Shown piece after piece: positions 40,191-56,474 of a stretch of DNA of 64,000 nt. The stretch comes from Actinomycetota bacterium. Its GTDB lineage: Bacteria; Actinomycetota; UBA4738; HRBIN12. Each line of letters opens with the position of its first letter. Positions within the stretch are counted from its first letter, which is position 1. Made by a program: the position numbers and the translations under genes. The stretch is taken from the NCBI GenBank assembly GCA_035288045.1, contig DATEBA010000005.1, positions 23,146 through 87,145 of the forward strand, given 5' to 3'. The notes below the pieces were generated by a model, which was not told the origin of the DNA, ran no database searches, and saw nothing but the letters and a program-made list of their open reading frames with translations.

Positions 40191-40940
40191 GTGAGCTCGG
40201 CCTCCTTCGATTCCGCGGTCGAGACGGTCCGCGCCGCCGCGGCGCGCGACGTGCCGCTTCGGCTCCTGGGCGGACAGGCGGTCCGGCTCCTTTGTCCGAA
40301 CTTCCCGCCTCGCGTGCGCGACGACCAGGACATGGACTTCGCATCGGTGTCGTCGGCGAAGGGGTCCGTGATGGAGTTCCTTTACGACCTCGGCTTCGTT
40401 GGTGACAAGCGCTTCAACACGATGCACGGGCACAAGCAGATGTACTTCACCTCCCCGGGAGGAGGCACGAGCGTGGACGTGGTCATGGATCAGCTGAACA
40501 TGTGCCACGTGCTCGACTTCAGGGACAGGATCGATCGGATGCCGTACACGCTTGACGTGACCGACCTCCTCCTGTCGAAGCTCCAGGTGGTCGAGCAGAA
40601 CGAGAAGGACGTCCAAGACATCGTCTACCTGCTCTGCGCCCACGAGGTGAGCGAAGGCGACGAGCCCGGCGCGGTCGGGCTCGCCCGGTTCGGGGAGGTC
40701 GTCGGTAACGACTGGGGATGGTGGCGAACCGTCACGGGCAACCTGGATCGGGTCGTCGAGCTGGCCGGCGGCGAGCTAAGCCGACTGGTGCCAGCCGGCG
40801 CCGCCCACGACCCCGTCGTGCAAGGCTCCGCCCTCCGCCGGTTCGCCTACGAGACGCCCAAGAGCCTCAGGTGGAAGATCCGTTCGAAGGTCGGGGAGCG
40901 CGTCCGCTGGTACGAGCTTCCCGAGGAGATAGCGCACTAG
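40191..40940 (+). CDS. Uncharacterised DNA polymerase-beta-superfamily nucleotidyltransferase
   Basis: LLGGQAV...RDDQDMDF (hGG...DhD) with a candidate third acid in VDV, then DLLLSKLQ...NEKD..DI. Confidence 0.72.
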   Translation: MSSASFDSAVETVRAAAARDVPLRLLGGQAVRLLCPNFPPRVRDDQDMDFASVSSAKGSVMEFLYDLGFVGDKRFNTMHGHKQMYFTSPGGGTSVDVVMDQLNMCHVLDFRDRIDRMPYTLDVTDLLLSKLQVVEQNEKDVQDIVYLLCAHEVSEGDEPGAVGLARFGEVVGNDWGWWRTVTGNLDRVVELAGGELSRLVPAGAAHDPVVQGSALRRFAYETPKSLRWKIRSKVGERVRWYELPEEIAH

Positions 40941-40947
40941 TAGCCCA

Positions 40948-42618
40948 CTAGACCCCCGCCTCCCGGCTCGGCCGGTGGCGGTAGAACTCGATCTCGGCCG
41001 GCGGCGGCGGCGTCTTGCCGAGGATCAGATCCGCCGCCTTCTCCGCGACCATCATCACGGGGGCGTAGATGTTGGCGTTGGTGATCGAGGGGAATACCGA
41101 AGCGTCCACGACCCGGAGGCCCTCGAAGCCGTGAACCTTCATGTTCGCCGGGTCGACGACCGACAGCTCGTCGACCCCCATCCTGCACGTGCACGACGGG
41201 TGCAGCGCGGTCTCGCCGTCTCGAGCAACCCATCCGAGGATCTGATCGTCGGTCTCGACGCCGGGTCCGGGCGAGAGCTCACCCCCGTTGAACTCGCCGA
41301 AGGAGCGCTGGTTCAGGATGCGGCGGACGATCCGGATCGCCTCCACCCACTCGCGCCGGTCCTTGTCGGTGGAGAGGTAGTTGAAGAGGAGGGCGGGGTG
41401 CACGGCCGGATCCGCCGACCGGATCTTCACCCATCCACGCGCGTCCGAGACCATCGGGCCGATGTGAACCTGGTATCCGTGGTCGCCGGCAGGCGCAGAG
41501 CCGTCGTAGCGAACCGCGATCGGCAGGAAGTGGAACATCAGGTTCGGCTCGTCGACCTCGTCGTTGCTTCGCGCGAAGCCGCCCCCCTCGAAGTGGTTGG
41601 TCGCCCCGGGGCCCCGCCTGAAGAAGAGCCACTGGAACCCGATCCAGGGCCTGTAGCGCCACTTCAGGTAGGGCGCCACGGAGACCGGCTTCGTGCAGGA
41701 GTACTGCACGTAGACCTCCAGGTGGTCCTGCAGGTTCTCGCCGACGCCCGGGAGGTGCTGCACGACGTCGATGCCGAGCGCCCGCAGCTCGTCGGCGTTC
41801 CCGACGCCGGAGACCTGGAGGAGCTGCGGGGAGTTGATCGCCCCGCCGCAGAGGATCACCTCGCCGGCCCGGATCCGCCGGGGCCGCTCCTTCCCCCGTG
41901 AGTACTCGACCCCGACGGCCCGGTTGCCCTCGAACAGGATCCTCGTCACGAACGCGCGCGTTCGCACCTCGAGGTTCGGCCGCCGCATCACCGGATGCAG
42001 GTACGCGCGGGCGGCCGACAGCCGCCTCCCGCGGTGCACGTTCCTGTCGAAGGGAGCGAACCCCTCCTGCCGGAACCCGTTCACGTCGTCGGTGAGGGTG
42101 AAGCCCGCCAGCTGCACGGCTTCGAAGAAGGCTCGGAACAGCGGATTGGTCGCGGGGCCGCGCTCGAGCACGAGAGGTCCGTCGTGGCCACGGAAGGGGT
42201 CGTCCTCGTTGGCGGCCAGGCAGTTCTCCATCCTCCGGAAGTACGGAAGGCAGTGCGCGTAGTCCCACGTCTGCGTCCCGGGGGCGCTAGCCCACCGCTC
42301 GTAGTCCATCGGGTTCCCCCGTTGGAAGATCATCCCGTTGATGCTGCTGGAGCCCCCCAGCACCTTGCCGCGGGCGTGATAGATCCTTCTGCCGTTCATG
42401 AACGGCTCGGGCTCGGACTCGTACTTCCAGTCGTAGAAGCGGCTCCCGATCGGGAAGGTGAGGGCCGCCGGCATGTGGATGAAGACGTCCCAGCTGTAGT
42501 CGGGCCTCCCGGCCTCTAGCACTAGGACCCGGTTGGACGGGTCGGCGGAGAGCCGGTTCGCCAGGACGCTACCGGCCGAGCCGCCCCCGACGATCACGAA
42601 GTCGTAGGGGTGTGCCAC
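40948..42618 (-). CDS. betA: Choline dehydrogenase (GMC oxidoreductase)
   Basis: [79 protein letters not shown]. The HPSCTCRMG ending is characteristic of BetA. Confidence 0.88.
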
Positions 42619-42653
42619 GGGTTCCACGGAACGAGCATGACACCCCGTCGGTG

Positions 42654-42684
42654 GGTGCGCAGCCCCCGTTGCGACCTGCGCACC
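42654..42684. promoter_or_regulatory. Inverted repeat plus IclR-type box in the betA/phosphoesterase divergent region
   Basis: GGTGCGCAG (42654-62) pairs with CTGCGCACC (42676-84). GTTGCG-ACCTG-CGCACC (42668-84) resembles the box at the iclR start. Confidence 0.45.
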
Positions 42685-42767
42685 TCTGGCGCTCCTGGCT
42701 TGCATAGGGACCCTGCGGCGAGGGACACTCGGAGGGCCCGCAGGCGAGCAGGGGGTCGCGGGAGGGC

Positions 42768-43712
42768 ATGCCCAAGATCTTCTACGTGACGGACATCCAC
42801 GGGTCCGAGATCTGCTGGATGAAGTTCCTGAACGCGGGGCCGTTCTACGGGGCCGATGTCGTGATCGTCGGCGGCGACATCACCGGCAAGGCCATGGTCC
42901 CGATCGTTGCCCGGAACGGCCGGTGGGAGACGACGCTCCAGGACCACCACGAGATCCTCGAGAGCGAGGCAGAGGTAGCCGAGATCGAGAAGAGGATCAT
43001 GAACCGCGGCTACTACCCGATCCGGGTTTCGGAGGAGGAGTACCGGGCTCTCCAGGAAGACGAGGATCTCGTCGACAAGCGCTTCAAGGAGGCGATGCTC
43101 GAGGGCACAGAGCGCTGGATCGGGATGGCGGAGGAGAAGTTCGCCGGCACGGGGATACGCCCGATCGCCTGCCCTGCCAACGACGACATGTTCGAGATCG
43201 ACGATGTCCTTGCCGGCGCGGACGTGGTCGAGACCGGCGACGAGGATCACCCGATCGAGCTCGACGGCTTTACGATCATCTCGATGGGTTGGACGAACCC
43301 GACGCCCTGGCACACGTTCCGGGAGGCGGAGGAGCCCGAGCTCGCCAGGCGGATCGCTCGCGCGCTGGAGCACGCGAGCGATCCGGAGACCACGATCATG
43401 AACCTCCATGCGCCGCCGTACGGCTCGCAGCTCGACAACGCGCCGGCGCTGAAGGACGACCTCACCTACGTCTCCGGCGGACAGGCGATCCGTCCGGTCG
43501 GCTCGACGTCGGTCCGCGATGCTATCCAGGAGTTCCAGCCCTTCCTGTCGCTGCACGGGCACATCCACGAGAGCAAGGGCGCCGCGCGGATCGGCAAGAC
43601 CCTCGCGCTAAACCCCGGGAGCTCCTACGAGGAGGGCGTGCTGCAATCAGCGGTGGTCGAGATCGACTCGAAGAAGCGGAAGGTGAAGAGCTATCAGCTG
43701 TTGACCGGCTAA
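42768..43712 (+). CDS. Calcineurin-like metallophosphoesterase (Icc-related, COG2129-like), copy 1
   Basis: TDIHG, GGDITGK, PANDD, HAPPY, LHGHIHE, NPGSSY. Confidence 0.85.
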
Positions 43713-43828
43713 CCGGGTAGGGCGCGATCGAACGGAGGTGATGTTCGAGACATGAACGATCGGAGGGACGGAGGCGAAGGGGGCTCCCGTCCCGACTCGA
43801 CGTGGTTCGGTATTCGGGAGGGGGTGCC

Positions 43829-45478
43829 ATGGCAGCGGTAGGCGAAGCTCCTACCTTGTTCCTTCGGAAGGCGACGGGACTCGTCAAGGGCTGGTCCCGG
43901 TTCGACGCCTTCCTCTACTCATTCATGTCGATCAACCTCGTGACCCTCGGCATGTTCTTCAGCCTTGCTGTGCTCGGCTACGCTCCCGGCGGCAACGTGC
44001 TATCCGCGATCGTGATCTCAGGGATCTTCGTGACGTTCCTCGTGATCACGTACGCGGGTCTGATCTCCGTCATGCCAAGGGCCGGCGGCGACTACGTGTG
44101 GCAGAGCCGGGTGCTCGGGGGCGGGATCGCGTTCGTGCTCGCGGTCACGGGTTGGTGGTTCATCCTTTGGTACTGGGCGCCGATCTACGGGGCCATCCTG
44201 AACGTCCAGGTTCTCCAGCCGATCGCCGCGCTGTTCAAGTTCGACGGGCTGCTCGAGTTCCTGGGGAAGGACAACGGCATATTCGCCGTCTGCATCTTGA
44301 CCGTGGCGCTTGCCGGGTACCTGGTGTCCCTCGGCATGGAGGGCTACGCGAGGGTCCAGAAGTTCTGCTTCTACCTCGCGATGGCGGGTCTGGCCGTGAT
44401 GCTCCTCGTCATGCTGTTCGGATCGCGGGAGGGCTTCCAGAGCGCCTTCAACCAGGAATCGGCGAACCTCTTCGGCACCAGCGGGGACACCTACGGGGCA
44501 ACCGTCGATCTGGCCGGAGGCAGCGCCGCACTTCCGCCGGATCTGGGGTTCTCGCCGCTCTTCGGCGACAGCCTGCTCCTCATCCCCTTCCTCGCGTTCT
44601 GGATCCTGTGGCCGAACTGGGGCGCGACCCTCTACGGAGAGGTCAGGGGAGCCGGAGACTTCAAGCGCGTGACCAGCGGAATGATGTGGGGGCTCTGGGT
44701 CACCATCGTCCTCGCGGTCGTCTTCCTGGCGCTGGCCTCGAAGTTCTTCGGCTGGGACTTCTTCAACGCCGGCAACGTGAACTTCATCAACTACTACTAC
44801 GGGTTCACGACCGACGTGACGATTCCCGTGTGGACGTACCCGCCGCTCCTTGTCGGGATGTTCTTCCACAACTCGTTCCTCGCGGCGATCCTCGTCCTGG
44901 TCTTCGGCGCGTGGTTCGTCGGCTGGGCGGGGACGCTGTTCCTGTCGTCCACGCGGGTGATCTTTGCGGCCGCGTTCGACCGTATCCTGCCGGAGCGTGT
45001 TGCTGACGTGTCCGAGAAGCGACACGTTCCCGTGTGGGCGTTGGTGTTGATGCTCGTGCCCGCAGTGGCGGTCAGCGCCCTGTACGCCTACTTCCACACG
45101 TTCAGGACGTGGGTGCTAGACGCGACCCTCGTGATCGCGGTGACCTTCTTCGGCACGGCCATCGCCGCCACGATCCTGCCCTGGCGCAAGAAGGCGCTCT
45201 ACGAGAGCTCGCCGATCGCGAGGTACAAGGTGGCGGGGATCCCTCTCATCACGATCTCCGGAGCGATCACGGCCCTGTTCCTGGGGTGGAACCTGTACAA
45301 GTGGATGTGGCCGCCCGCTTCGGAGGGCAACCTGTACGGGATCAACAACCTCGACTCCTTGAAGTTCATGGGGGCGATGTACCTCCTCGCGGTCGTCGTC
45401 TACGTGGTCGCGAAGGTGTATCGGAAGAGCCAGGGGATCGACCTGGGAGCGATCCACAAGGAGATCCCGGTCGAGTAG
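43829..45478 (+). CDS. APC-family amino acid/amine permease
   Basis: FLRKATGLV, MPRAGGDYVWQSR, YGEV, R.IFAAAFDRILP, about 14 hydrophobic segments, C-terminal KEIPVE. Confidence 0.9.
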   Translation: MAAVGEAPTLFLRKATGLVKGWSRFDAFLYSFMSINLVTLGMFFSLAVLGYAPGGNVLSAIVISGIFVTFLVITYAGLISVMPRAGGDYVWQSRVLGGGIAFVLAVTGWWFILWYWAPIYGAILNVQVLQPIAALFKFDGLLEFLGKDNGIFAVCILTVALAGYLVSLGMEGYARVQKFCFYLAMAGLAVMLLVMLFGSREGFQSAFNQESANLFGTSGDTYGATVDLAGGSAALPPDLGFSPLFGDSLLLIPFLAFWILWPNWGATLYGEVRGAGDFKRVTSGMMWGLWVTIVLAVVFLALASKFFGWDFFNAGNVNFINYYYGFTTDVTIPVWTYPPLLVGMFFHNSFLAAILVLVFGAWFVGWAGTLFLSSTRVIFAAAFDRILPERVADVSEKRHVPVWALVLMLVPAVAVSALYAYFHTFRTWVLDATLVIAVTFFGTAIAATILPWRKKALYESSPIARYKVAGIPLITISGAITALFLGWNLYKWMWPPASEGNLYGINNLDSLKFMGAMYLLAVVVYVVAKVYRKSQGIDLGAIHKEIPVE

Positions 45479-45496
45479 CCGGGATCGAGTTCGTTC

Positions 45497-45520
45497 GGGG
45501 GGCGGCGAGCGCCGCCCCCC
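45497..45520 (+). terminator. Intercistronic hairpin after the APC permease
   Basis: GGGGGGCGGC-gagc-GCCGCCCCCC, a perfect 10-bp stem. Confidence 0.6.
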
Positions 45521-45540
45521 ATCGTCCGTGAGGTGTTCGC

Positions 45541-46989
45541 ATGGCAGACGAGTACCGGATGTTCATAGGCGGCGAGTGGGTCGGCTCGGAGAGCGGGGCC
45601 GTGTTCGAGGCGACCAGTCCGTCCTCCGGCGAGGTGATCGGCACGGTGCCGGAGGGCACCCGCGCCGACGCGCAGCGAGCGATCGCGGCGGCCGGCGAGG
45701 CGTGGCAGGGGTGGGGCGCGCTGTCGGCGTTCGATCGCGCGGCCAAGCTACGGCGGATGGCCGAGATCGCCGCCGAGCGCCGAGAGGACCTCGCCCACAC
45801 GCTGGCGCTCGACCAGGGCAAGCCGCTACGGGCGGAGGCTCACGACGAGGTTGAGGAGCTGATCTCCTACTTCGAGATGGCCGCCGAGGACGCGACGCGG
45901 CTGGACGGCGTGATCCCGCCGTCGGTGGACCGGAGCAAGCGGGTGCTCCTCCAGCGGGTGCCGCGAGGGGTCGTCGCGGCGATCAGCCCTTGGAACTGGC
46001 CGTACACGATGCCGGCGGAAATCGTGGCGCCGGCGCTCGCCTACGGCAACGCCGTTGTGTGGGTGCCCGCGCCGACGACCTCGGTGTGCGCCGTGAAGCT
46101 CGCGGAGGTGGTCGCCGAGGCCGATGTGCCACCCGGGGTCTTCAACATGGTGACCGGTCCCGGGCCGGTCGTCGGCGACGAGATCGCGGCCCACCCCGAG
46201 ACGCATGCGGTCGGGTTCATCGGCTCCATCGCGACCGGACGGTCGGTGGCGCAGCGTGCCGCGGGCAAGGAGCTGCTGCTCGAGATGGGTGGCAATGGGC
46301 CGCTCGTGATCATGGAGGACGCCGACCTCGACGCGGCCGTTCGCGGGACGCTTTCCGCGTGCTTCCTCAACGCGGGTCAGAGCTGCACCGCCGGGGAGCG
46401 GATCCTCGTGCACGAGGACGTGCACGACGACTACCTCGAGCGTCTCGCGGACGCGGTCGGTCGGGGGATCAGGCTCGGCGACCCCTTCGACGACCGGACC
46501 ACGATGGGCCCGCTCAACAACCCCGGTGTCGCCGACAAGACCGAGCGGCATGTGGGCGAGGCCTCGGAGCGCGGCGCAAGGGTGCAGCTCGGCGGGCGTC
46601 GCTCGCCCGAGCTCGGCTCGGACCTGTTCTTCGAGGCGACGATCGTCGACGAGGTGACCGACGAGATGGAGATCGCCCGCGAGGAGACGTTCGGACCGGT
46701 CGCGCCGGTCTCCAGGATCCGGAGCGAGGACGAGGCGATCCGCCTGGTGAACTCGTCGCCCTACGGGCTCCTCTCCGCGATCTTCACCCGTGATCTCCGG
46801 CGGGGTCTGCGCTACGCCGAGGCCGTGCGAGCCGGATGGGTGAACGTGAACGAGGGCACGAACTACTGGGAGTCGCATCTTCCCTTCGGCGGCCGGGCGG
46901 GCTCGATGAGCGGCGTCGGTCGCGTCGGCGGCCGGTACTCGATGGAGCGTCTGACGGAGCTCAAGACCGTCGTCGTCGACGTGTCTTGA
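45541..46989 (+). CDS. Aldehyde dehydrogenase (GabD-like family)
   Basis: SPWNWP, FIGSIATG, LEMGGNGP, catalytic AGQSCTAG, EETFGPV, PFGG. Confidence 0.92.
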   Translation: MADEYRMFIGGEWVGSESGAVFEATSPSSGEVIGTVPEGTRADAQRAIAAAGEAWQGWGALSAFDRAAKLRRMAEIAAERREDLAHTLALDQGKPLRAEAHDEVEELISYFEMAAEDATRLDGVIPPSVDRSKRVLLQRVPRGVVAAISPWNWPYTMPAEIVAPALAYGNAVVWVPAPTTSVCAVKLAEVVAEADVPPGVFNMVTGPGPVVGDEIAAHPETHAVGFIGSIATGRSVAQRAAGKELLLEMGGNGPLVIMEDADLDAAVRGTLSACFLNAGQSCTAGERILVHEDVHDDYLERLADAVGRGIRLGDPFDDRTTMGPLNNPGVADKTERHVGEASERGARVQLGGRRSPELGSDLFFEATIVDEVTDEMEIAREETFGPVAPVSRIRSEDEAIRLVNSSPYGLLSAIFTRDLRRGLRYAEAVRAGWVNVNEGTNYWESHLPFGGRAGSMSGVGRVGGRYSMERLTELKTVVVDVS

Positions 46990-47004
46990 GGCAAGGAAGG
47001 TCGC

Positions 47005-47988
47005 GTGCGACGAGCGCGTGACGGTCGCACAACGCGGCTCTTCTACGCCGCGGACCTCCACGGCTCGGAGCCCACCTTCCGGAAGCTCGTGAACGCCGCG
47101 GCCTTCTACGACGCCGATGCCCTCGTGTTCGGGGGCGACCTCATGGGTAAGGTGCTCGTGCCGATCGTCCGCTGGGGAGGGACCTTCCGGGCTCGTTTCC
47201 TCGGGGCGGATCACGAGCTCGACGCGGACGGGCTCGCCCCATTCGTCGGGAGCCTGGAGACGACGGGCTTCTACTGGAAGGTGATGAACCCCGACGAATA
47301 CGAGGAGGTCAAGTCCGATCCGCTCGCGCAGCGGACGCTCTTCTGCGAGCTGGCCGGCGAGCGCCTGGCGTCCTGGCTCTCGCTGGCGGAGGACCGGCTC
47401 GCGGGTACCGGCGTGCGGCTGTACCTCACCGGCGGCAACGACGACGAGCCTGCGGTCCTCGAGGTGCTCGAGCGCCACGATGGCCGGGTCGCGATCGCGT
47501 CCGAGGGGCGAGTGGTGCAGGTCGACGGGGACCACACGATGATCACCGTCGGGTTGTCGACACCCACGCCGTGGGACACCCCGAGGGAGGCAGGCGAGGA
47601 CGTGATCGCCGAGGCGATCGAATCTGCGGGCGCCCGGGTGCCGGACCCCGGGCGCTGCGTCTTCAACCTGCACTGCCCGCCGAAGGACACGCCGCTCGAC
47701 ACCTGCCTTGAGCTGGAGCGCTCACCGGGCGAGCTGCCACGTCCGGTCCGTCGGGGCGGACGGTTCGTCACGACCGGCGGCGGCAGCGCCGCCGTGCGAA
47801 GAGCGATCGAGTCCTACCAGCCGCTGGTGGGTCTCCACGGCCACGTCCACGAGTCGCCCGGGCGCTTCCGGATCGGCCGAACCCAGTGCTTCAACCCCGG
47901 TAGCGAGTACGCCCAGGGCATCCTGCAGGGCGTGCTCGTCTCGCTTCGGTCCGGTGCCGTCACCGGATACCAGCACACCTCGGGGTAG
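47005..47988 (+). CDS. Calcineurin-like metallophosphoesterase (Icc-related, COG2129-like), copy 2
   Basis: ADLHG, GGDLMGK, GGNDD, HCPP, LHGHVHE, NPGSEY. Clear paralog of 42768-43712. Confidence 0.85.
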   Translation: MRRARDGRTTRLFYAADLHGSEPTFRKLVNAAAFYDADALVFGGDLMGKVLVPIVRWGGTFRARFLGADHELDADGLAPFVGSLETTGFYWKVMNPDEYEEVKSDPLAQRTLFCELAGERLASWLSLAEDRLAGTGVRLYLTGGNDDEPAVLEVLERHDGRVAIASEGRVVQVDGDHTMITVGLSTPTPWDTPREAGEDVIAEAIESAGARVPDPGRCVFNLHCPPKDTPLDTCLELERSPGELPRPVRRGGRFVTTGGGSAAVRRAIESYQPLVGLHGHVHESPGRFRIGRTQCFNPGSEYAQGILQGVLVSLRSGAVTGYQHTSG

Positions 47989-47995
47989 GCGAGCG

Positions 47996-48067
47996 TTGAC
48001 GCCCGGCGCGGCGCGGGAGTAGGGTCGCCGTTGCGACATGGCCATTAGCGTTGCGTGATGCGAAACG
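47996..48067 (+). promoter_or_regulatory. Promoter and palindromic operator of the iclR operon
   Basis: TTGACG (47996-48001), 18 nt, TAGGGT (48020-25). The palindrome CGTTGCG-TGATG-CGAAACG (48049-67) covers the start codon. Confidence 0.6.
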
Positions 48068-48843
48068 TAGAGCGAAGCGGCGTCCAGTCGGTCGCCCGCG
48101 CGCTGGCGATCCTTGAGGAGCTCGCGGGCGGCGAGCTGGGCGTCACCGAGCTGGGGCGCCGACTGGGTGTCCACAAGGCAACCGCCTCGCGGCTGGTCGC
48201 GACCCTGGCGGATCGAGGGCTCGTGGAACGCGATCCCTCGACCGACAAGTTCCGCTTGGGGTTCGGCCTGATCCACCTCGCCGGCGCCGCGATGGCGGGA
48301 CTCGATCTCGTTCACGAGGCGCACCCCGTGCTGGAGGACCTCGCCGAGCGAACGCGGGAGACCGTGAACCTCGCAGTGCGCGACGGCGACAGCGTGATGC
48401 ACGTCGACCAGATCGCCGGAACGCGCTCGGTCGTGTCGGTGTCCTGGGTCGGCCGTCGCACGCCCTACCACTGCACCTCGAACGGCAAGGTGCTGCTCGC
48501 GTTCCTCGGTGACGCCGAGCGCGCCCGGCTGCTCGCCGCGCCGCTCGAGCGCAGGACGGCGAACACGATCGTGGACCCCGACGCGCTCCGGGCTCAGCTC
48601 GCGGAGGTCGCCACCCGCGGGTACGCGTTCACCGTCGAGGAGCTCGAGGAAGGCCTGAATGCCGTCGCGGCGCCAATCCGGGGCGCCGCTGGCGAGGTGG
48701 TGGCGGCCGTCAGCGTGTCGGGGCCCGCGTTCCGGTTCCTGCGGTCGGACATCGAGCGGGTCGGGCGGATCGTCATGGACGCGGCGGGCGCGATCTCACG
48801 CCGGATGGGGTACGTGGAGAGGAGGCAGTCCGTTGGAGGTTGA
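48058..48843 (+). CDS. IclR-family transcriptional regulator
   Basis: VQSVARALAILE, LGVHKATASRLV.TL, ETVNL, HCTSNGKVLLA, RGYA...EE..EGL.AVAAPI, AAVSVSGP. Confidence 0.93.
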   Translation: MRNVERSGVQSVARALAILEELAGGELGVTELGRRLGVHKATASRLVATLADRGLVERDPSTDKFRLGFGLIHLAGAAMAGLDLVHEAHPVLEDLAERTRETVNLAVRDGDSVMHVDQIAGTRSVVSVSWVGRRTPYHCTSNGKVLLAFLGDAERARLLAAPLERRTANTIVDPDALRAQLAEVATRGYAFTVEELEEGLNAVAAPIRGAAGEVVAAVSVSGPAFRFLRSDIERVGRIVMDAAGAISRRMGYVERRQSVGG

Positions 48844-50002
48844 GGAGAACCCCGGGATCCTGCTGTACACGAGGATCCGCAAGTCGCCGTACTTCTACGC
48901 CTCGCGCAAGCACGGCGTGAAGCGCTACAGCGTCTACAACCACACCTATCACCCCCGGCACTACGGCGACCCGGTCGAGGAGTACTGGAAGCTCGTGAAC
49001 GGCGTCACGCTGTGGGACGTCGGCGTCGAGAAGCAGATCCAGATCAAGGGGCCCGATGCCTTCGACCTGGCGAACACGATCGTGCCCCGCGACCTGCACA
49101 AGTGCGCGGTCGACCAGTGCAAGTACGTGTTCATCACGGCTCCCGACGGCGGGATCCTGAACGACCCGGTGCTGCTGCGCGTGGCCGAGGACGAGTTCTG
49201 GCTCTCGCTCGCTGACAGCGACGTCAACCTGTACGCGCTCGGCATCGGAGCCGCCCTGGGGATGAACGTCACGGTCGGCGAGATCGACGTCGCGCCGGTC
49301 CAGGTCCAAGGGCCGAACGCGAAGAAGGTGCTGGTCGAGCTGGTCGGCGACTCGATCCTCGAGGTGCCCTACTACGGCCTCATGAAGGCCGAGATCGACG
49401 GGATCCGCGTCGTGATCTCGCGCACCGGCTACACCGGCGAGGTCGGGTACGAGATCTACTGCCACAACGCGAGCGTCCACGGTGCGCGGCTCTGGGACCT
49501 AGTGCTGGAGGCCGGCCAGCCCCACGGTCTGGATGTGATCGGGCCGTGCCATATCCGCCGCATCGAGGGCGGCATCCTGGCCTTCGGAGCGGACATGTGG
49601 TACGAGAACAACCCCTTCGAGGTCGGCTATCACTACACGTGGATGGTCGACCTCGACCAGGAAGCCGACTTCATGGGGAAGGAAGCTCTGAGGCGCATCA
49701 AGGAAGAGGGCGTGAACCAGAAGCTCGTCGGCGTGGACATGGGGGGCGACCCCCTCGGGACCTACATCGACAACGAGATGATCGACTTCTTCCCCGTTCA
49801 CGCGGGCGGTCGCGAAGTCGGGCGGGTGACCTCGGCTTGCTTCTCGCCCCGCCTGGAGAAGAACATCGGGTTCGCGATGCTTCCGATCGAGCACGCCGAG
49901 CTCGGGAACGCGCTCGAGGTGGACGTTCCCTCAGGAAGGGTGGCTGCGACGGTCGTCCAGATGCCGCACTGGGATCCGACCAAGGAGATCCCCAAGCAGT
50001 AG
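48833..50002 (+). CDS. GcvT-family THF-dependent methyltransferase, DmdA-like clade
   Basis: TTG start 8 nt after GGAGG. RIRKSPY, VYNH, LWDVGVEKQ..IKGPDA, DGGILNDPVLL...W.SLADSD, SRTGYTGE.GYE, RIEGG, NNPFEVG, VTSACFSP. No gcvH or gcvP in the window. Confidence 0.82.
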   Translation: MEVEENPGILLYTRIRKSPYFYASRKHGVKRYSVYNHTYHPRHYGDPVEEYWKLVNGVTLWDVGVEKQIQIKGPDAFDLANTIVPRDLHKCAVDQCKYVFITAPDGGILNDPVLLRVAEDEFWLSLADSDVNLYALGIGAALGMNVTVGEIDVAPVQVQGPNAKKVLVELVGDSILEVPYYGLMKAEIDGIRVVISRTGYTGEVGYEIYCHNASVHGARLWDLVLEAGQPHGLDVIGPCHIRRIEGGILAFGADMWYENNPFEVGYHYTWMVDLDQEADFMGKEALRRIKEEGVNQKLVGVDMGGDPLGTYIDNEMIDFFPVHAGGREVGRVTSACFSPRLEKNIGFAMLPIEHAELGNALEVDVPSGRVAATVVQMPHWDPTKEIPKQ

Positions 50003-50032
50003 TCCTCGAGGAGCGCTCCGAAGGAGGCGGGG

Positions 50033-52552
50033 ATGAGCGATTTGCCGGAGCGGGCGAGCATCGTCGTGGTCGGCGCGGGGATCGTGGGAAACAGCATGGC
50101 CTACCACCTTGCGCTCCTCGGGTGGCGGGACATCGTGCTGGTGGACAAGGGCCCCCTGCCCAACCCGGGCGGGTCCACCGGTCACGCCTCGAACTTCATA
50201 TACCTCGTGGACCACTCCAAGGAGATGACGAGGTTCACCCTCGACAGCCTGGAGCAGTACCAGAAGCTCGGAGTCGCCACGATCTCGGGGGGGATCGAGG
50301 TGGCGCGCACGCCCGAGCGCATGGAGGAGCTCAAGCGACGCATCGCGTCGGCCAAGTCCTGGGGCATCGAGCCGGTGGAGCTGGTCACACCCTCCGAGGT
50401 CCGCGAGCTGGTTCCGTTCGTGGACGACAAGGTGATCCTCGGCGGCTTCTACACGCCGGGCGTCGCCGTCGTGGACTCTCTGCGCGCCGGAACCCTGATG
50501 CGCGAGCGAGCGCAGGAGATGGGCGCGCTCACGGTCTCGGCCTCGACTGAGGTCACCGGGATCGACGTCGCCGACGGGCGGATCGGTCGCGTCCGGACCG
50601 ACAGGGGCGACGTCCAGACGGAGACGATCGTCGTCTGCTGCGGCATCTGGAGCCCGCGTATCGCCCGGATGGCCGGCGCCTCGATCCCGCTCACGCCGGC
50701 GGTGCACCAGATGATCGACGTCGGACCGGTGCCGCTCTTCGAGGGAACCGTCGGCGAGATCGAGTACCCGATCGTCCGCGACGTCGATACGAACATGTAC
50801 GAGCGCCAGCACGGCAGCGAGCTCGAGATCGGCTCCTACGCGCACCGGCCGATCCTCTGGGAGCCCGACGACATCCCATCGATCGAGCAGTCCGCGCTTT
50901 CCCCGACCGAGCAGCCGTTCACGAAGGGCGACTTCGATCCGCAGCTCGAGGACGCGCTCGAGCTGATGCCGGAGATCCTGGGCGACGAGCGGGTCGGCGT
51001 GAAGTACGCGATCAATGGGCTCCTCTCGCTCACCCCGGACGGGATGCCGTGCCTGGGTGAGACGCCGGAGGTTCAGGGTCTGTGGTCGGCCGCGGCGATC
51101 TGGATCAAGGAGGCGCCCGGGATAGCCAAGTGCATCGGGCAGTGGATGACCGACGGGACCCCCGAGATCGACCCGCACGCGTCGGACGTCGCGCGCTTCT
51201 ACCCGCACCACCGGACCAGGAAGCACGTCAAGGAGCGCTGCGCCGAGGGCTACAACAAGACCTACGGCATCGTGCACCCGATGGAGCAGTGGAGCTCGAA
51301 CCGCAACGTCCGGCTCACGCCTTTCAACGAGCGGGAGCGAGCGCTCGACGCGGTGTTCTATGAGGCGGCCGGCTGGGAGCGCCCACACTGGTACGGGTCA
51401 AACGCGGCTCTGCTCGAGGAGTACGGCGACCGCGTGATGCCCCGGGAGGCCGAGTGGGAGTCTCGGTGGTGGTCGCCGATCGTGAACGCGGAGCACCTCG
51501 CGATGCGCGAGCGTGTGGGGCTCGTCGACCTCTCGGCGTTCGCGATCTTCGACGTGACCGGTCCCGGGGCGCTCGGGTACCTCGAGGGGTTGGTCGTCAA
51601 GCAGATCGGCGTGCCAGTGGGGCGCGTCGTCTACACGCCCTTGCTCAACGCGGCCGGCGGCGTGAAGGCCGACCTCACGATCATGCGCCTTTCATCGAAC
51701 GAGTTCCGCGTGGTGACCGGCGGTTTCTCCGGGATGTTCGACAAGAAGTGGTTCGTCGACCATCTCCCGGACGATGGCTCGGCGCAGCTGTTCGACGCGA
51801 CCTCCGCGTGGTGCACGGCCGGTGTCTGGGGGCCGAGCGCGCGCGACCTGGTCGCCTCGGTGACCGAGGACGACGTCTCCGGCAAGGGGTTCCCGTTCGC
51901 GACCTGCCGCCGCATCACGATCGACACGCTCGGGGTGCTCGCCTCCCGGATCTCGTACGTGGGCGAGCTTGGATGGGAGCTCCACGTGCCGATGGAGCAG
52001 GGCGCCAGCCTCTGGGACGTGCTCTGGGAGGCCGGGCGGCCGCTCGGAGTCGTGCCGGTCGGGATCGGCGTGTACGCGACGACCGCCCGCCTCGAGAAGA
52101 GCTACCGCGCGCACGGCAACGAGCTGGAGCTCGAGTACGACCTGGTCGAGGCGGGCATGGCGGGTCCGTCGCTCAAGGACGAGGACTTCGTCGGGCGCGA
52201 GGCGTACCTGAAGCAACGGGCCGGCGATCCGGCCGCGCTTCTCTGCACGCTCACGGTCGACGACCACACGTCCTCTTCCGGCGTGAAGCGATACATGATG
52301 GGCCGCGAGCCGATTCTCTTGCCCGACGGCGACCCGATCGTGGACGCGAAGGGCAGGCGGTCATACGTCACGAGCGCCGGCTCTGGGCCGTCGCTCGGCA
52401 AGCATCTGCTGATGGCCTACCTGCCTCCGGAGCGCGCGAAGGAAGGCGAGCGCCTCGCCGTCGAGTACTTCGGCGAGCGGTACCCGGTGACCGTGGCCGT
52501 GGTCGGCGCACGGCCGCTGTTCGACCCCGAGAACGAGCGGATGAAGCGCTGA
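50033..52552 (+). CDS. Dimethylglycine/sarcosine dehydrogenase-like flavoprotein (DAO domain + GcvT domain)
   Basis: VVVGAGIVG, PGGSTGHA, AINGLLSLTPDG, GWERP.WY, SYVGELGWE, RLEKSY, YVTSAGSG, FDPENERMK. Followed directly by ETF genes. Confidence 0.88.
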   Translation: MSDLPERASIVVVGAGIVGNSMAYHLALLGWRDIVLVDKGPLPNPGGSTGHASNFIYLVDHSKEMTRFTLDSLEQYQKLGVATISGGIEVARTPERMEELKRRIASAKSWGIEPVELVTPSEVRELVPFVDDKVILGGFYTPGVAVVDSLRAGTLMRERAQEMGALTVSASTEVTGIDVADGRIGRVRTDRGDVQTETIVVCCGIWSPRIARMAGASIPLTPAVHQMIDVGPVPLFEGTVGEIEYPIVRDVDTNMYERQHGSELEIGSYAHRPILWEPDDIPSIEQSALSPTEQPFTKGDFDPQLEDALELMPEILGDERVGVKYAINGLLSLTPDGMPCLGETPEVQGLWSAAAIWIKEAPGIAKCIGQWMTDGTPEIDPHASDVARFYPHHRTRKHVKERCAEGYNKTYGIVHPMEQWSSNRNVRLTPFNERERALDAVFYEAAGWERPHWYGSNAALLEEYGDRVMPREAEWESRWWSPIVNAEHLAMRERVGLVDLSAFAIFDVTGPGALGYLEGLVVKQIGVPVGRVVYTPLLNAAGGVKADLTIMRLSSNEFRVVTGGFSGMFDKKWFVDHLPDDGSAQLFDATSAWCTAGVWGPSARDLVASVTEDDVSGKGFPFATCRRITIDTLGVLASRISYVGELGWELHVPMEQGASLWDVLWEAGRPLGVVPVGIGVYATTARLEKSYRAHGNELELEYDLVEAGMAGPSLKDEDFVGREAYLKQRAGDPAALLCTLTVDDHTSSSGVKRYMMGREPILLPDGDPIVDAKGRRSYVTSAGSGPSLGKHLLMAYLPPERAKEGERLAVEYFGERYPVTVAVVGARPLFDPENERMKR

Positions 52553-52553
52553 C

Positions 52554-53306
52554 GTGAACGTCCTGGTCTGCGTGAAGCGAGTCCCCGTCACCGGCGGACG
52601 TATCACCCTCACTCCCGACGAACGAGAGATCGACACCAAGTTCCTCGGCTTCACCGTCAGCCCGCACGAGGAGTGCGCCGTCGAGGAGGCGGTCCGGATC
52701 GTCGAGGCAGGGGGCGGTAGCTCGACCGTGCTGACCCTCGGCACTCCTGAGTCGGAGGAGCAGCTGCGGGACGCGCTGGCGATCGGGATCGCCGAGGCGA
52801 TCCTGCTCGAGACCGGCGGAGCCGAGTGGGATCCGGGGGCGACCGCCGCCGCGATAGCCGAGACCGTCCGCGATCGCGGGTTCGACCTGCTCCTGTTCGG
52901 CAACGAGGCAGCCGACACCGGCGACTACCAGGTCGCTGTGCGTGTGGCGCACTTGCTTGGAGTGCCTTGCGTGACCGGGGTGAAGCGCCTCGAGGTGCGG
53001 GATGGGGCGGCGCTCGCACTCCGCGAGGCCGCAGGCGGTTGGGAGGTCTTCGAGCTGCCGCTCCCCGCGGTGGTCTCCGTCAAGGAGGGCATCAACCTGC
53101 CCAGGTACCCGTCGATGCCCGGCAGACTCCGTGCCAAGAAGAAGGACATCGAACGTCTCGCGCCCGAGCCTCCCGCGGCGGAGCTCGAGATGGTCCGCCT
53201 CCGGCTCCCCGAGGCGGCCGACAAGCAGGTCGAGGTCATCGGCGAGGGGCCGGACGCGGCCCCAAGGGTGGTCGAGATGCTCCGGGAGATCGGGGTCGTC
53301 TCGTGA
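52554..53306 (+). CDS. etfB: Electron transfer flavoprotein beta subunit
   Basis: LVCVKRVP, HEECAVEEAVR, ALAIG, LLFGNEAADTG..QV, NLPRYPS. Confidence 0.92.
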   Translation: MNVLVCVKRVPVTGGRITLTPDEREIDTKFLGFTVSPHEECAVEEAVRIVEAGGGSSTVLTLGTPESEEQLRDALAIGIAEAILLETGGAEWDPGATAAAIAETVRDRGFDLLLFGNEAADTGDYQVAVRVAHLLGVPCVTGVKRLEVRDGAALALREAAGGWEVFELPLPAVVSVKEGINLPRYPSMPGRLRAKKKDIERLAPEPPAAELEMVRLRLPEAADKQVEVIGEGPDAAPRVVEMLREIGVVS

Positions 53307-54274
53307 TCCTCTGCATGGTCGAGCACGACCGCGGTGAGCTGAACGAGATCTCACTCCAGGCACTTACGTTCGGTCGCGGGCTCGCGGAGCGACTCGACGT
53401 GCCCCTCGACGCCGTCGTCGTGGGCGAGGCCGGTCGAGTTCTCGTTGGGTCGCTTGGTCCGTTCGGTGTCTCCACCGTGCACCTCGCCGCCCACGAGCGG
53501 CTCGACGACTACGCGCCGATCGCCTGGGGGCGGAGCGTGGCGGAGCTGGTCTCGTCGCTCGGGCCGGAGGCGGTTCTGGCCGCTGGGACCGATCGAGGGA
53601 ACGAGGTCATGGCCCACGCTGCCGCGATGTCATCTCTCCCGATGGCGGCGAACGTCGTCGCGGCGGAGCCCGGCGACCCTTGGCTCGTCACGCGGGTCAG
53701 GTGGGGCGGGAGCCTCCTCGAGGAGGCCCGCGTGCACGGTGCTGCGAAGCTGCTGACGGTTGCCCCCCATGTCGTGCGGGCGGATGAGACGACGCCCTCG
53801 CAACCCGAGGTGGTCGAGTTCGCGCCGGCGCTGACCGATGGGGATCTGCTCGTTCGCGTCGTCGATCGCGTCGCGGCCGAGACGGGGAAGGTCGCGCTCC
53901 CGACGGCCCGCGTGGTCGTCGGCGGCGGCCGAGGCGTCGGCAGCGCCGAGGGGTTCGTAGTCCTGGAGGAGCTGGCGGAGCTGCTCGGGGCAGCGGTGGG
54001 GTGCTCACGCGTAGTCACGAGCCTCGGCTGGCGCCCGCACACCGACCAGGTCGGCCAGACCGGAACCCGGATCGCTCCCGACCTATACATCGCGTGCGGC
54101 ATCAGCGGAGCCATCCAGCACATGGTCGGGGCCAAGGCCGCGAAGAAGATCCTCGCGATCAACATGGATCGAGACGCGCCGATCATGGTGCAGGCCGACT
54201 ACGCGGTGATCGGCGACCTCCACGCGGTGCTTCCCGCCGTCGTGCAGGAGCTCCGCAAGGCCGGCGGCGCCTGA
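53303..54274 (+). CDS. etfA: Electron transfer flavoprotein alpha subunit
   Basis: ARVVVGGGRG, AVGCSR, QVGQTG, PDLYIACGISGAIQHMVG, AINMDRDAPI...ADY...GDL. Confidence 0.93.
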   Translation: MILCMVEHDRGELNEISLQALTFGRGLAERLDVPLDAVVVGEAGRVLVGSLGPFGVSTVHLAAHERLDDYAPIAWGRSVAELVSSLGPEAVLAAGTDRGNEVMAHAAAMSSLPMAANVVAAEPGDPWLVTRVRWGGSLLEEARVHGAAKLLTVAPHVVRADETTPSQPEVVEFAPALTDGDLLVRVVDRVAAETGKVALPTARVVVGGGRGVGSAEGFVVLEELAELLGAAVGCSRVVTSLGWRPHTDQVGQTGTRIAPDLYIACGISGAIQHMVGAKAAKKILAINMDRDAPIMVQADYAVIGDLHAVLPAVVQELRKAGGA

Positions 54275-54300
54275 CGTCGGCGCTGCGGTAGGGTCCCGAC

Positions 54301-55719
54301 GTGAACGAGCTCTCCTCCGTGGCCGCCGTGGACGCGCTCCGGGCGTTCCGGGAGCGATCGCTCTCGCCCGTCGAGCTCCTCGAGGCGGTGATCGCCCGCG
54401 CGGAGGCCGTCGAGCCGACCCTGAACGCCTTCTCCGAGACCCGCTTCGACGAGGCGCTGGTGCAGGCGAAGGAGGCGGAAGCGCGGTATCAGAAGGGCGG
54501 GCGCGTGCGTCCGCTCGAGGGCTTGCCGGTTGCCCTGAAGGACGAGGCCGAGGTGAAGGGATGGAAGGCGACCTTCGGCTCGCTCGCCTTCCGCGACCAG
54601 ATCGCCGACCACACCGCGCCGGTCGCATGGCGGATCCTGCGGAGCGGGGCGATCGTGCACGCGCGGACGACGACCCCGGAGTTCTCCTGCGCGCCCTACA
54701 CGCACTCCCGACTCTGGGGCGTCACCCGGAACCCCTGGAATCCGGAGTTCGCCGTCGGGGGCTCTTCGGGCGGCTCGGGCGCCGCGCTCGCCGCGGGGAC
54801 GGCCGCGCTCGCGAGCGGCTCGGACATCGGCGGTTCGATTCGGATCCCCGCGTCGTTCAACGGCGTCGTCGGGTTCAAGCCGCCGCACGGGCGCGTCCCG
54901 GTGGAACCACCGTTCAACCTCGATCAGTACTGCCACGAGGGGCCGCTCGCGCGCACGGTCGCCGACTGCGCGCTGCTGGAGAACGTGATGGCCGGGCCGC
55001 ACCCGCGCGACGTCACGTCCCTCCGTCCGAAGATCCGGATCCCGCCTGAGCTGAAGGGGATCGAGGGGTGGCGGATCGGGCTGTCGCTCGACCTGGGCGG
55101 CTACCGGGTCGACGACGAGGTCGCGAAGCGGACGCTCGAGGCCGCGGACGCGCTCCGGGAGGCCGGCGCGATCGTCGAGGAGGTCGCGATCGGGTGGGAC
55201 CTCGAGGCGATCGTGCGGTCGGCCCGGATCCACTTCGGGGCGATCTTCGGCGCGGAGATTGGCGAGGTCGCCGCCGAGCACCGCGAGCTCCTCACCGAGT
55301 ACGCCCTCGCGTTCGCCGAGGAGGCCGCGGCCGTGCCGCCGGGAGCGTTCCTCGAGGGGCTCCGGCTGGAGGCCGAGATCTACGCGCACCTCGGGCGATC
55401 GCTGCAGCGCTACCGGGCGCTCGTCTGCCCGACGATGGCCGTGACAGGGTTCGCCGCAGGCGACGATTACCTGGGGCGAACGAGAGAGGACGGCGGGCCG
55501 CTCGACCGGCAGTTCGACGCGTGCATGACGGTGCCGTTCAACGTTTGCAGCCGGTGCCCGGTTCTCGCGGTCCCGTCGGGGTTCGCGTCCAACGGTGTGC
55601 CTACCGGCATCCAGGTCGTCGGCCGGACCTTCGACGATGTGGGGGTCTTCCGGATCGGCGCCGCTCTGGAACGTGTCCGCCCCTGGCTCGACGCGCCCGA
55701 GCGCCGCCCGCGGATCTGA
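54301..55719 (+). CDS. Amidase-signature family hydrolase
   Basis: PLEGLPVALKD, GGSSGG, GSDIGGSIRIPAS.NG..GFKP (Ser-cisSer-Lys triad). Confidence 0.92.
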   Translation: MNELSSVAAVDALRAFRERSLSPVELLEAVIARAEAVEPTLNAFSETRFDEALVQAKEAEARYQKGGRVRPLEGLPVALKDEAEVKGWKATFGSLAFRDQIADHTAPVAWRILRSGAIVHARTTTPEFSCAPYTHSRLWGVTRNPWNPEFAVGGSSGGSGAALAAGTAALASGSDIGGSIRIPASFNGVVGFKPPHGRVPVEPPFNLDQYCHEGPLARTVADCALLENVMAGPHPRDVTSLRPKIRIPPELKGIEGWRIGLSLDLGGYRVDDEVAKRTLEAADALREAGAIVEEVAIGWDLEAIVRSARIHFGAIFGAEIGEVAAEHRELLTEYALAFAEEAAAVPPGAFLEGLRLEAEIYAHLGRSLQRYRALVCPTMAVTGFAAGDDYLGRTREDGGPLDRQFDACMTVPFNVCSRCPVLAVPSGFASNGVPTGIQVVGRTFDDVGVFRIGAALERVRPWLDAPERRPRI

Positions 55720-55790: not shown

Positions 55791-56027
55791 ATGACCGTCG
55801 TGGACCAGGTGAACGTGCATGACGCGAAGACGCACCTCTCCAAGCTGCTGGCCCGCGTGGAGAGGGGGGAGGAGATCGTGCTGGCGCGCGCCGGTAAGCC
55901 TGTGGCCAAGCTCGTCCCTATCGCGCGTCTCGAGCGCCGTCCATCGGGTTTCGCGAAGGGAACCATCTGGATCTCCGACGACTTCGACGATCCTCTCCCC
56001 CCAGAGTTCTGGTTCGGAAGCGATTGA
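55791..56027 (+). CDS. vapB: Phd/YefM-family antitoxin
   Basis: VNVHDAKTHLSKLLARVERGEEIVLARAGKPVAKLVP...SDDFDDPLP. Confidence 0.92.
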   Translation: MTVVDQVNVHDAKTHLSKLLARVERGEEIVLARAGKPVAKLVPIARLERRPSGFAKGTIWISDDFDDPLPPEFWFGSD

Positions 56028-56410
56028 GGCTGCTCCTCGACACGCACGTCTTTCTCTGGTGGATCGGTGAGGACGACCAGCTGCCGCGCCCCATCTGGGA
56101 GGCGATCGGCGACCCTAACAACCAAGCGCTCCTCAGCGCGGCGGCCGCCTGGGAGATCGTCGTCAAGGCCGGCGGCGGCCGCCTCCGCCTGATGGAGCCG
56201 CCAGAGGAGCTCCTGCCTCGAGGGATCGACCGGGCGCGTCTGATCATGCTGCCTGTCGAGCTCCGTCACGTGCTGCGACTCGCGTCGCTGCCCCCGATCC
56301 ACGCGGACCCTTTCGATCGGATGCTCGTTGCGCAGGCGCTCGAGGACGGCCTCACGCTCGTCACCGGCGATCCCGTCGTGCAGTCCTACGGCGTTGACTT
56401 CATCTGGTAG
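56024..56410 (+). CDS. vapC: PIN-domain VapC toxin
   Basis: LLLDTHVFLW, SAAAAWEI, H.DPFDRML.AQA, LVTGD. Overlaps the antitoxin by 4 nt. Confidence 0.92.
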   Translation: MRLLLDTHVFLWWIGEDDQLPRPIWEAIGDPNNQALLSAAAAWEIVVKAGGGRLRLMEPPEELLPRGIDRARLIMLPVELRHVLRLASLPPIHADPFDRMLVAQALEDGLTLVTGDPVVQSYGVDFIW

Positions 56411-56422: not shown

Positions 56423-56452
56423 CTGAACAGTCGTTCAGTCCGAGGATATGCT
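56423..56452 (+). promoter_or_regulatory. Operator 16-mer and promoter of the acyl-CoA dehydrogenase gene
   Basis: Perfect-armed CTGAAC-AGTC-GTTCAG (56423-38). TATGCT (56447-52) lies 18 nt after the left arm. Confidence 0.65.
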
Positions 56453-56474
56453 GCGCGCACGGAGGTGGTCGCCC

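Follow-up and report, generated by a model that had tools for sequence, protein, structure and literature searches.

The gene at positions 48833–50002 on the forward strand of the 64,000-nucleotide (nt) stretch of soil Actinomycetota DNA analysed here (the window) encodes a stand-alone, 389-aa protein of the GcvT fold, and it lies in an operon for the conversion of choline to glycine. We lean, with modest confidence, to the view that this protein (the target) is a glycine betaine:tetrahydrofolate (THF) N-methyltransferase, a predicted activity that would fill the step missing from the operon, from betaine to dimethylglycine (DMG). Its fold, family, operon, gene order in relatives and linkage to methylenetetrahydrofolate reductase (MTHFR) genes were observed, and its chemistry and substrate are predicted.

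The target gene was part of a co-directional operon (42768–55719), in which the gaps were no larger than about 90 nt and several genes overlapped (most <35 nt). The order was MP1, APC-family permease, aldehyde dehydrogenase (ALDH), MP2, IclR, target, DMG dehydrogenase-like protein (DMGDH), the beta and alpha subunits of electron-transfer flavoprotein (ETF), and amidase; MP1 and MP2 designate two metallophosphoesterase-like proteins. Downstream of the target, 50033–52552 (+) encoded an 839-aa homologue of DMG dehydrogenase/oxidase with FAD and its own folate domain (Pfam DAO, FAO_M, GCV_T and GCV_T_C). The closest PDB relative of this homologue was the Arthrobacter DMG oxidase 1pj5 (E 3e-166). 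The ETF beta gene (52554–53306, +; Pfam ETF) and alpha gene (53309–54274, +; Pfam ETF and ETF_alpha) followed.

The earlier part of the pathway was represented by a divergent gene for the choline dehydrogenase BetA (40948–42705, −), whose product scored 844.6 bits against TIGR01810 (cut-off 732), and by an ALDH gene (45541–46989, +; Pfam Aldedh), which probably encodes betaine aldehyde dehydrogenase (388 bits against the NCBIfam BADH model, cut-off 669). The permease (43802–45478, +; Pfam AA_permease) is presumed to take up choline or choline esters. A second ALDH gene lay at 28636–30084. A reading made earlier from the letters alone (the sequence-only reading) had listed choline dehydrogenase, ALDHs and a DMGDH-like gene with ETF in this island, and the Pfam and NCBIfam hits bore this out. 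A promoter and terminator scan and an inverted-repeat search of the intergenic regions gave no signal beyond the shuffled expectation.

The roughly 52 open reading frames (ORFs) over the 64 kb were scanned against Pfam for known betaine demethylases and partner genes. None matched the Rieske, Ring_hydroxyl_A, S-methyl_trans (the family of betaine–homocysteine methyltransferase, BHMT), MttB, B12-binding or pterin-binding families, and none matched GcvH, GcvP, MTHFR or sarcosine oxidase (Sox). Searching the window by tblastn with BHMT-like, MTHFR, formyltetrahydrofolate synthetase (FTHFS) and Rieske queries also gave nothing. These searches confirmed that the window lacks Rieske GbcAB, BHMT and MttB-type genes, as the sequence-only reading had claimed. 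The Pfam scan likewise upheld its description of the target as a stand-alone GcvT-family gene without gcvH or gcvP, directly upstream of the DMGDH gene.

The target gene was a genuine coding region, with a GC content at third codon positions (GC3) of 0.90. It started with TTG at 48833, 7 nt downstream of a good ribosome-binding site, GGAGAGGAGG, and this start overlapped the stop of the upstream gene for an IclR-family regulator (48055–48843, +; Pfam HTH_IclR and IclR_C). The longer ORF from ATG 48659 in a mechanical ORF list was rejected as spurious, because the homologues are only 389–391 aa long; its extra stretch lay inside the IclR gene in another frame. Pfam identified GCV_T (E 3.5e-39) and GCV_T_C (E 4.9e-18) in the product.

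The translation contained the motifs RIRKSPY, VYNH, WDVGVEKQ, NDPVLL, WLSLADSD, NPFEVG and TGYTGE. The DmdA-matching motifs pointed out by the sequence-only reading were thus all present, and they aligned with RLRSTPY, IYNH, WDVAAERQ, NDPVVL, WISIADSD and NPFECG of Pelagibacter DmdA (PDB 3tfh), the demethylase of dimethylsulfoniopropionate (DMSP).

Comparison with NCBIfam, in which curated models carry their own cut-offs, placed the target below the cut-off of every model, and no equivalog model fitted it. The best match was the DmdA equivalog (NF009133/PRK12486), with 321.6 bits against a cut-off of 410; the homologue of Pseudonocardia acaciae (318.5 bits) and the P0127 clade (317.3 bits) scored similarly. 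The C-domain of the trimethylamine N-oxide demethylase (Tdm) model gave 228 bits, its cut-off of 1100 being set for full-length Tdm. The GcvT models gave 179 bits (NF001567, cut-off 300), 152 bits (TIGR00528, cut-off 236) and 134 bits (NF010093, cut-off 459).

The structural comparison also pointed to DmdA. By sequence, the closest solved structure was DmdA 3tfh (E 8e-63), with Tdm and GcvT behind. An AlphaFold2 model of the target (pLDDT 94.6) showed a three-domain, GcvT-like fold, for which 3tfh was also the top Foldseek match (TM-scores 0.91/0.96, root-mean-square deviation 1.5 A). The folate domains of GcvT, DMGDH and SoxA followed at TM 0.83–0.85, and LigM at 0.69.

A survey of 1.8 billion cluster representatives (50% identity) showed a sharp gap in identity to the target. 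One representative, that of the target's own cluster, was 85% identical; the next was at 57%, several were at about 50%, and true DmdA was at about 33%. The clusters of close homologues contained hundreds of metagenome sequences.

A neighbour-joining tree was built from 71 sequences (373 columns, 100 bootstraps), among them GcvT from B. subtilis and from T. maritima, the Tdm C-domain and the C-domain of the window's own DMGDH. The target and 3tfh fell in a DmdA-like superclade, from which GcvT and the C-domains of Tdm and DMGDH were excluded at 99% bootstrap; the phylogeny called for by the sequence-only reading thus kept the target apart from canonical GcvT (1yx2, 1woo). The target clade had 100% bootstrap and included a subclade of 65–69% identity with P. 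acaciae, and its sister was P0121 (98%). 3tfh lay outside the target clade and grouped with P0217, and the deeper order among the DmdA-like clades was unsettled in this tree. DmdA is the sole characterised member of the superclade, and its direct transfer of a methyl group yields 5-methyl-THF (PMC5395565).

Alignment columns were analysed for 28 members of the target clade. More than half of the positions were at least 96% conserved, which indicates a constrained enzymatic function. Tyr and Trp residues specific to the clade (Y12, Y39, Y44, Y180, Y181, Y200, W256, Y268, W270 and Y311) may build an aromatic cage. The folate-binding residues D111 (in NDP), E207 and Y209 (in a G-Y-E-x-Y motif) were conserved in the target, and E207 was invariant over 53 sequences. 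NDP, WDV, ADSD, NPFE and the N-terminal R.R.SPY were common to the target clade and DmdA and different in Tdm and DMGDH. On the other hand, TGYTGE and a C-terminal PxWDPxKE tail were kept in the target, Tdm and DMGDH and lost from DmdA.

The sequence-only reading had taken TGYTGE, which aligned with SGWSKQ of 3tfh, as a sign of a different substrate. The motif itself carries no novelty: it is the ancestral motif of GcvT, Tdm and DMGDH, and the state in DmdA is derived. The part of the argument that stood concerns the replaced Trp. This residue, W171 (W197 in 3tfh numbering, in the SGWS motif), has been reported as a DMSP-specific contact (PMC7487153), and it was Tyr200 in all 28 clade members. 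The replacement throughout the clade is consistent with a substrate other than DMSP.

That the target is an ordinary GcvT, or a true DmdA located here by chance, is very improbable. The public annotations of its relatives do say so, and the fold is shared. These annotations were generic ('glycine cleavage system aminomethyltransferase T', 'aminomethyltransferase'), with 'DmdA [bacterium HR12]' appearing once, and the cluster members of sister clades also carried generic names only. However, we rejected a canonical GcvT from the missed model cut-offs, the gene context, including the lack of gcvH and gcvP in the window, and the phylogeny. We rejected a true DmdA from the missed cut-off, the position outside the DmdA clade and the change of Trp to Tyr. 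The conserved betaine context of the gene also spoke against both identities.

This context was examined in about 70 loci. A single scan of 185,579 species genomes supplied 67 of them, and look-ups of exact proteins on contigs supplied the others. Almost all of the carriers were metagenome-assembled genomes of soil Actinomycetota, with targets 82–89% identical to that of the window; the one cultured carrier was P. acaciae DSM 45401 (66% identity; NZ_JIAI01000001.1, about 469182–470336, minus strand). Genomes with the gene include GCA_040880705.1, GCA_026003035.1 and GCA_046729855.1, and it also occurs on MFD contigs of Mb scale. One contig with the actinobacterial cluster and an 86%-identical target (L010, JBHGAT010000097.1) was binned as 'Candidatus Velamenicoccus archaeovorus', and it was probably mis-binned. 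The loci were annotated by tblastn with the window proteins and with MTHFR, SoxBDAG, OpuA, iron-containing alcohol dehydrogenase (Fe-ADH) and PALP references from Pfam-labelled loci. Synteny was counted over the 41 non-redundant loci in which 4.5 kb or more lay on each side of the target, and flanks were seen up to 10 kb per side.

A homologue of DMG oxidase/dehydrogenase stood in the target cluster in 40 of the 41 loci. BetA was present in 28, and a GbsB-like Fe-ADH replaced it in 5, so that one or the other was found in 33. ALDH was present in 26 loci, the APC permease in 29, and an OpuAC-type binding protein of an OpuA-type betaine/choline ABC system in 6. Heterotetrameric sarcosine oxidase was found in 26 and ETF in 14, and at least one of the two was present in 40. 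The IclR gene was upstream of the target in 14 loci. Two types of clusters were apparent: ETF-linked, as in the window, and DMG oxidase–target–MTHFR with soxGADB. The DMG enzyme of the latter type scored 764 bits to 1pj5.

The smallest clusters were especially telling for the substrate. One (L001) consisted of BetA with an OpuA ABC system, ALDH, the target, DMGDH and ETF, and another (L004) of IclR, the target, DMGDH and ETF only. The target is the sole enzyme without a step in these two clusters, and betaine to DMG is the sole step without an enzyme. Betaine is proposed as the substrate because of this pathway hole.

Other candidates for the missing step were sought among the remaining neighbours. 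The unassigned neighbouring ORFs were clustered, and the 20 largest groups were scanned with Pfam; they included EamA, PD40, YjbR, hydrolases, arginase, further OpuAC, MFS and FTHFS proteins, and none of them belonged to the Rieske, BHMT or MttB families. Neither gcvH nor gcvP was among the recurrent neighbours of the related loci, and a BHMT-like query matched none of the target-clade loci in tblastn. The gbcAB-, bhmt- and mtgB-type genes named by the sequence-only reading were thus not found among the recurrent neighbours of the homologues, up to 10 kb per side, with the exception of a GbcA-like gene in P. acaciae that is taken up below. MP1, MP2 and a 249-aa protein encoded beside betA were weighed as enzymes of the missing step and rejected, since neither MP1 nor MP2 occurs in the OpuA-type minimal clusters, in which the target is retained.

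The evidence for the chemistry came largely from MTHFR. A gene for a MetF-type MTHFR (PF02219) was near the target in 21 of the 41 loci, on the same strand and downstream, at distances from 6 to about 2800 nt. The only exception was one locus (L065) with MTHFR upstream of the target. The linkage occurred in at least four gene orders, including target–MTHFR–DMGDH–ETF, DMG oxidase–target–MTHFR/sox, sox–target–MTHFR (P. acaciae) and MTHFR–IclR–target, and it was found in all but one of the seven loci that make up the 65–69% subclade, P. acaciae included. In L003 the adjacent MetF homologue was encoded at 11228–12115. A separate clade of 50% identity contained a compact triad of MTHFR, a DmdA-like/GcvT-like protein and FTHFS (L077 1447–5316).

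DMG dehydrogenase and sarcosine oxidase yield methylene-THF, which is processed by FolD together with PurU or FTHFS and does not call for MetF. A MetF dedicated to the pathway would be of use only if 5-methyl-THF is formed, and this would therefore be the product of the target. The MTHFR linkage is thus the main, indirect evidence that points to a methyltransferase rather than a methylene-forming module, and the proposed chemistry follows from it together with the homology to DmdA.

Such a linkage has parallels. LigM and DesA, the aryl O-demethylases, also have the GcvT fold and transfer the methyl group directly to THF, giving 5-methyl-THF. In Sphingobium SYK-6, they are coupled genetically to metF and to a gene resembling that of formyl-THF ligase (ligM-metF-ligH). 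The linkage of the target relatives to MTHFR (and FTHFS) has the same logic, and the triad in L077 mirrors this arrangement. LigM and DesA are unlike the target in that their similarity to it is remote (E about 2e-8, TM 0.69) and that their donors are aryl methyl ethers. The second parallel is from betaine metabolism itself: in R. pomeroyi, growth on betaine induced MetF2, encoded beside mtgD, more strongly than any other protein, and MetF2 was proposed to oxidise the betaine-derived methyl-THF (PMC12478193).

Several observations weighed against the proposed function. MTHFR was missing from this 64-kb window by both Pfam and tblastn. The target keeps the ancestral features of the methylene-THF-forming domains, namely TGYTGE and the PxWDPxKE tail. 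We know of no characterised enzyme that transfers a methyl group from a quaternary ammonium compound to THF directly, by an SN2 reaction. Also, Reisch et al. in 2008 are said to have found true DmdA inactive on glycine betaine.

Two further points of this kind came from divergent relatives. P. acaciae (L063 12016–14764) encoded a GbcA-like Rieske oxygenase and a reductase, back-to-back with target–MTHFR. GbcA was the best model for the oxygenase, with 208 bits (cut-off 670), and the reductase consisted of a Pyr_redox_2 protein with an N-terminal extension of about 140 aa. No DMGDH was nearby, and the Rieske pair occupied the place of the DMGDH found in all the other loci. The oxygenase could act there as a DMG demethylase, with the role of the target unchanged, or could itself be the enzyme for betaine. 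In the sister clade P0121 (57% identity), the homologue had a DAO-only flavoprotein on one side and, on the other, a gene of the homocysteine S-methyltransferase family (L075 1578–5212), which was followed by soxBDA and FTHFS. The best models for this S-methyl_trans protein (348 aa, with Zn-binding Cys motifs) were the YitJ-type homocysteine methyltransferase (150 bits) and BHMT (99 bits), both below cut-off. For this clade, the arrangement would suit a DMG dehydrogenase split from its folate module and accompanied by BHMT.

As an observation on the more distant relatives, the homologue of a clade at 51% identity (L079 1653–6004) had a start that overlapped an amine-oxidase gene, and DUF179 and Ring_hydroxyl_A proteins followed. 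When long relatives were searched for domain fusions ('Rosetta stone'), AMP-binding, SnoaL, OCD and methyltransferase domains turned up as fusion partners. Some of these are probably merged gene calls, and none was informative for the target clade. One representative protein (P0143, 694 aa, 43% identical to the target) was predicted to have a DmdA-like domain followed by an AMP-binding (DmdB-like) domain; the two may be genuinely fused, or two genes may have been called as one.

These relatives bear on the possibility that the target is not a methyltransferase. It could be a free-standing folate module, modelled on the folate domains of DMGDH, SoxA and Tdm, which captures, as 5,10-methylene-THF, the formaldehyde or iminium that a partner oxidase or oxygenase sets free. 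This partner would be a DAO-type flavoprotein, an amine oxidase or a Rieske N-demethylase. We consider a capture module of this kind improbable, but it has several points in its favour: the TGYTGE motif and tail common to the target, Tdm and DMGDH; the Tdm C-domain as the second-best family match; the DAO-only flavoprotein and BHMT-like gene beside the sister-clade homologue; the overlap with the amine-oxidase gene in the 51% clade; and, in P. acaciae, the adjoining Rieske oxygenase as a would-be releaser of formaldehyde.

On the other hand, the DMG oxidase/dehydrogenase present in all but one of the loci already has a complete folate domain, as does SoxA, and no folate-less oxidase was conserved beside the target clade. 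A producer of methylene-THF would also give no reason for the tight MTHFR linkage. The known domains of this kind, in DMG oxidase/dehydrogenase, SoxA, Tdm and GcvT, have the same fold as the target, a TGYTGE-G-E motif, the conserved Asp (D111 in the target) and the C-terminal tail. They form 5,10-methylene-THF from iminium, formaldehyde or aminomethyl-lipoyl, and they occur as parts of a fusion or a complex with an oxidising partner. The target is unlike them in being free-standing, linked to MTHFR and phylogenetically separate, the DmdA-like superclade standing apart from all known methylene-forming domains.

A different question is whether the chemistry is as proposed, from an onium methyl to THF with 5-methyl-THF as the product, and the physiological substrate is something other than glycine betaine. 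The methyl donor could then be choline, DMSP, dimethylsulfonioacetate, beta-alanine betaine, proline betaine or a betaine derived from carnitine or gamma-butyrobetaine. The MTHFR linkage and the DmdA-like placement speak only for the chemistry, and the OpuAC- and APC-type transporters are not diagnostic of a substrate.

A peripheral acyl-CoA module also recurred near the cluster; it loosely recalls DmdBCD or the CoA pathways of carnitine and butyrobetaine. One part of it (56448–62257) comprised an acyl-CoA dehydrogenase, a BetI-like TetR gene on the reverse strand, a CrtO-like flavin oxidoreductase and an ADP-forming acyl-CoA ligase, and the upstream part (35832–38872) an enoyl-CoA hydratase and a second CoA ligase. 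The acyl-CoA dehydrogenase was within 10 kb of the target in 21 of the 41 loci. The TetR repressor (57660–58328, −; Pfam TetR_C_6, BetI-type) scored 88 bits against NCBIfam BetI, below the cut-off. The module may serve the breakdown of another betaine, of the carnitine or butyrobetaine type, or have a DmdBCD-like role.

We nevertheless regard another substrate as unlikely, though worth keeping in view. DMG is the expected product, since the DMG oxidase/dehydrogenase partner is invariant and sarcosine oxidase is frequent, and BetA and ALDH make betaine. The minimal clusters are devoid of acyl-CoA genes. For DMSP in particular, the contact Trp is absent, the DmdA cut-off was missed, and the carriers are soil Actinomycetota.

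Glycine betaine thus remained the favoured substrate, and the following sequence of reactions can be proposed. Choline would be imported by the APC permease or the OpuA-type ABC system and oxidised to betaine by BetA (or Fe-ADH) and ALDH. Betaine would occupy the pocket of the target that is equivalent to the DMSP pocket of DmdA. N5 of THF would attack one of its N-methyl groups, and DMG and 5-methyl-THF would be released, with no use of O2, corrinoid or homocysteine. The adjacent DMG oxidase/dehydrogenase, ETF-linked in the window, would remove the second methyl group to give sarcosine and methylene-THF, and sarcosine oxidase, clustered in many relatives, would remove the third to give glycine. 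A MetF-type reductase, which is adjacent in half of the loci and presumably elsewhere in this genome, would re-oxidise 5-methyl-THF to methylene-THF.

Corrinoid-dependent Mtg systems already run the net reaction of betaine and THF to DMG and methyl-THF, and LigM, with its GcvT fold, transfers the methyl group even from aryl ethers. Neither thermodynamics nor the fold thus forbids the proposed reaction. The suggestion of the sequence-only reading, an oxygen- and cobalamin-independent betaine:THF methyltransferase, drew circumstantial support from the DmdA-like placement, the linkage to the DMG gene in 40 of the 41 loci and the linkage to MTHFR in 21.

Among the known systems, DmdA (EC 2.1.1.269; 3tfh; NF009133) was the best match in both sequence and structure. 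The two proteins belong to the same superclade, both stand alone with about 370–390 aa, and they presumably have a common chemistry, in which a methyl group of an onium carboxylate goes directly to N5 of THF. They differ in several respects. The identity is only 31–33%, and the target keeps TGYTGE and the C-terminal tail and has Tyr for the contact Trp. It occurs among choline, betaine and DMG genes in soil Actinomycetota, whereas DmdA occurs with dmdBCD in marine Proteobacteria.

GbcAB/BmoAB, BHMT (Bmt) and MtgABC/MtgBCD carry out the same physiological step as proposed for the target, from betaine to DMG. Their folds and cofactors are unrelated to those of the target: Rieske and O2, Zn and homocysteine, and TIM barrel and cobalamin, respectively. 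The Mtg systems share with it the proposed net reaction, and a dedicated metF paralogue is likewise linked to them (PMC12478193).

The other genes of the operon and its surroundings were also catalogued. MP1 (42768–43712, +) showed a sub-threshold Metallophos match, travelled with the permease and was found in 27 of the 41 loci. Its paralogue MP2 (47005–47988, +; 36% identical to MP1) was found in 31. Both carry a DxHG motif, gave only sub-threshold matches in Pfam, flank the APC permease and ALDH, and are missing from the OpuA-type clusters. They may be hydrolases of choline esters (phosphocholine, glycerophosphocholine) that feed the pathway. Neither had a match in the PDB and NCBIfam comparison, nor did a 249-aa protein (40191–40940), which also had no match in Pfam and lay beside betA in 25 of the 41 loci. 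The last gene of the operon, for an amidase (54301–55719, +; Pfam Amidase), is probably outside the conserved system, because it was found in this window only (one of the 41 loci).

A PIN-domain (VapC-like) gene (56024–56410) lay between the betaine operon and the acyl-CoA module, and a PIN/VapB pair was similarly placed in L001. Farther upstream, a DAO-family flavoprotein (24019–25461) had 'putative aminophosphonate oxidoreductase' as its best model (341 bits, cut-off 633) and was not a sarcosine oxidase.

A study of September 2025 named only three routes of betaine demethylation: GbcAB, BHMT and the cobalamin-dependent Mtg systems (PMC12478193). Our full-text literature search found no description of a betaine demethylase of the GcvT/DmdA type. 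The target may represent a fourth route, in which a single DmdA-like subunit is predicted to transfer the N-methyl group directly to THF without O2, cobalamin or homocysteine. This route would occur widely among uncultured Actinomycetota of soils, with a dedicated MetF linked to it. We hold this broader proposal to be evenly balanced.

Few osmolytes and methyl carriers are as abundant in soils and oceans as glycine betaine and choline, and the first demethylation is the least settled part of their catabolism. The present result is a well-supported prediction of function, and it would, if confirmed, add a new substrate class to a known kind of enzyme. The donors of GcvT-fold methyltransferases would then extend from sulfonium and aryl ether to quaternary ammonium. 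Annotations as 'glycine cleavage T protein' or 'DmdA' would be corrected in large numbers; such mis-annotations inflate the apparent DMSP-demethylation potential of non-marine metagenomes. The step from betaine to DMG would be freed from its requirement for O2 and B12, and the use of betaine by abundant soil Actinomycetota would be accounted for.

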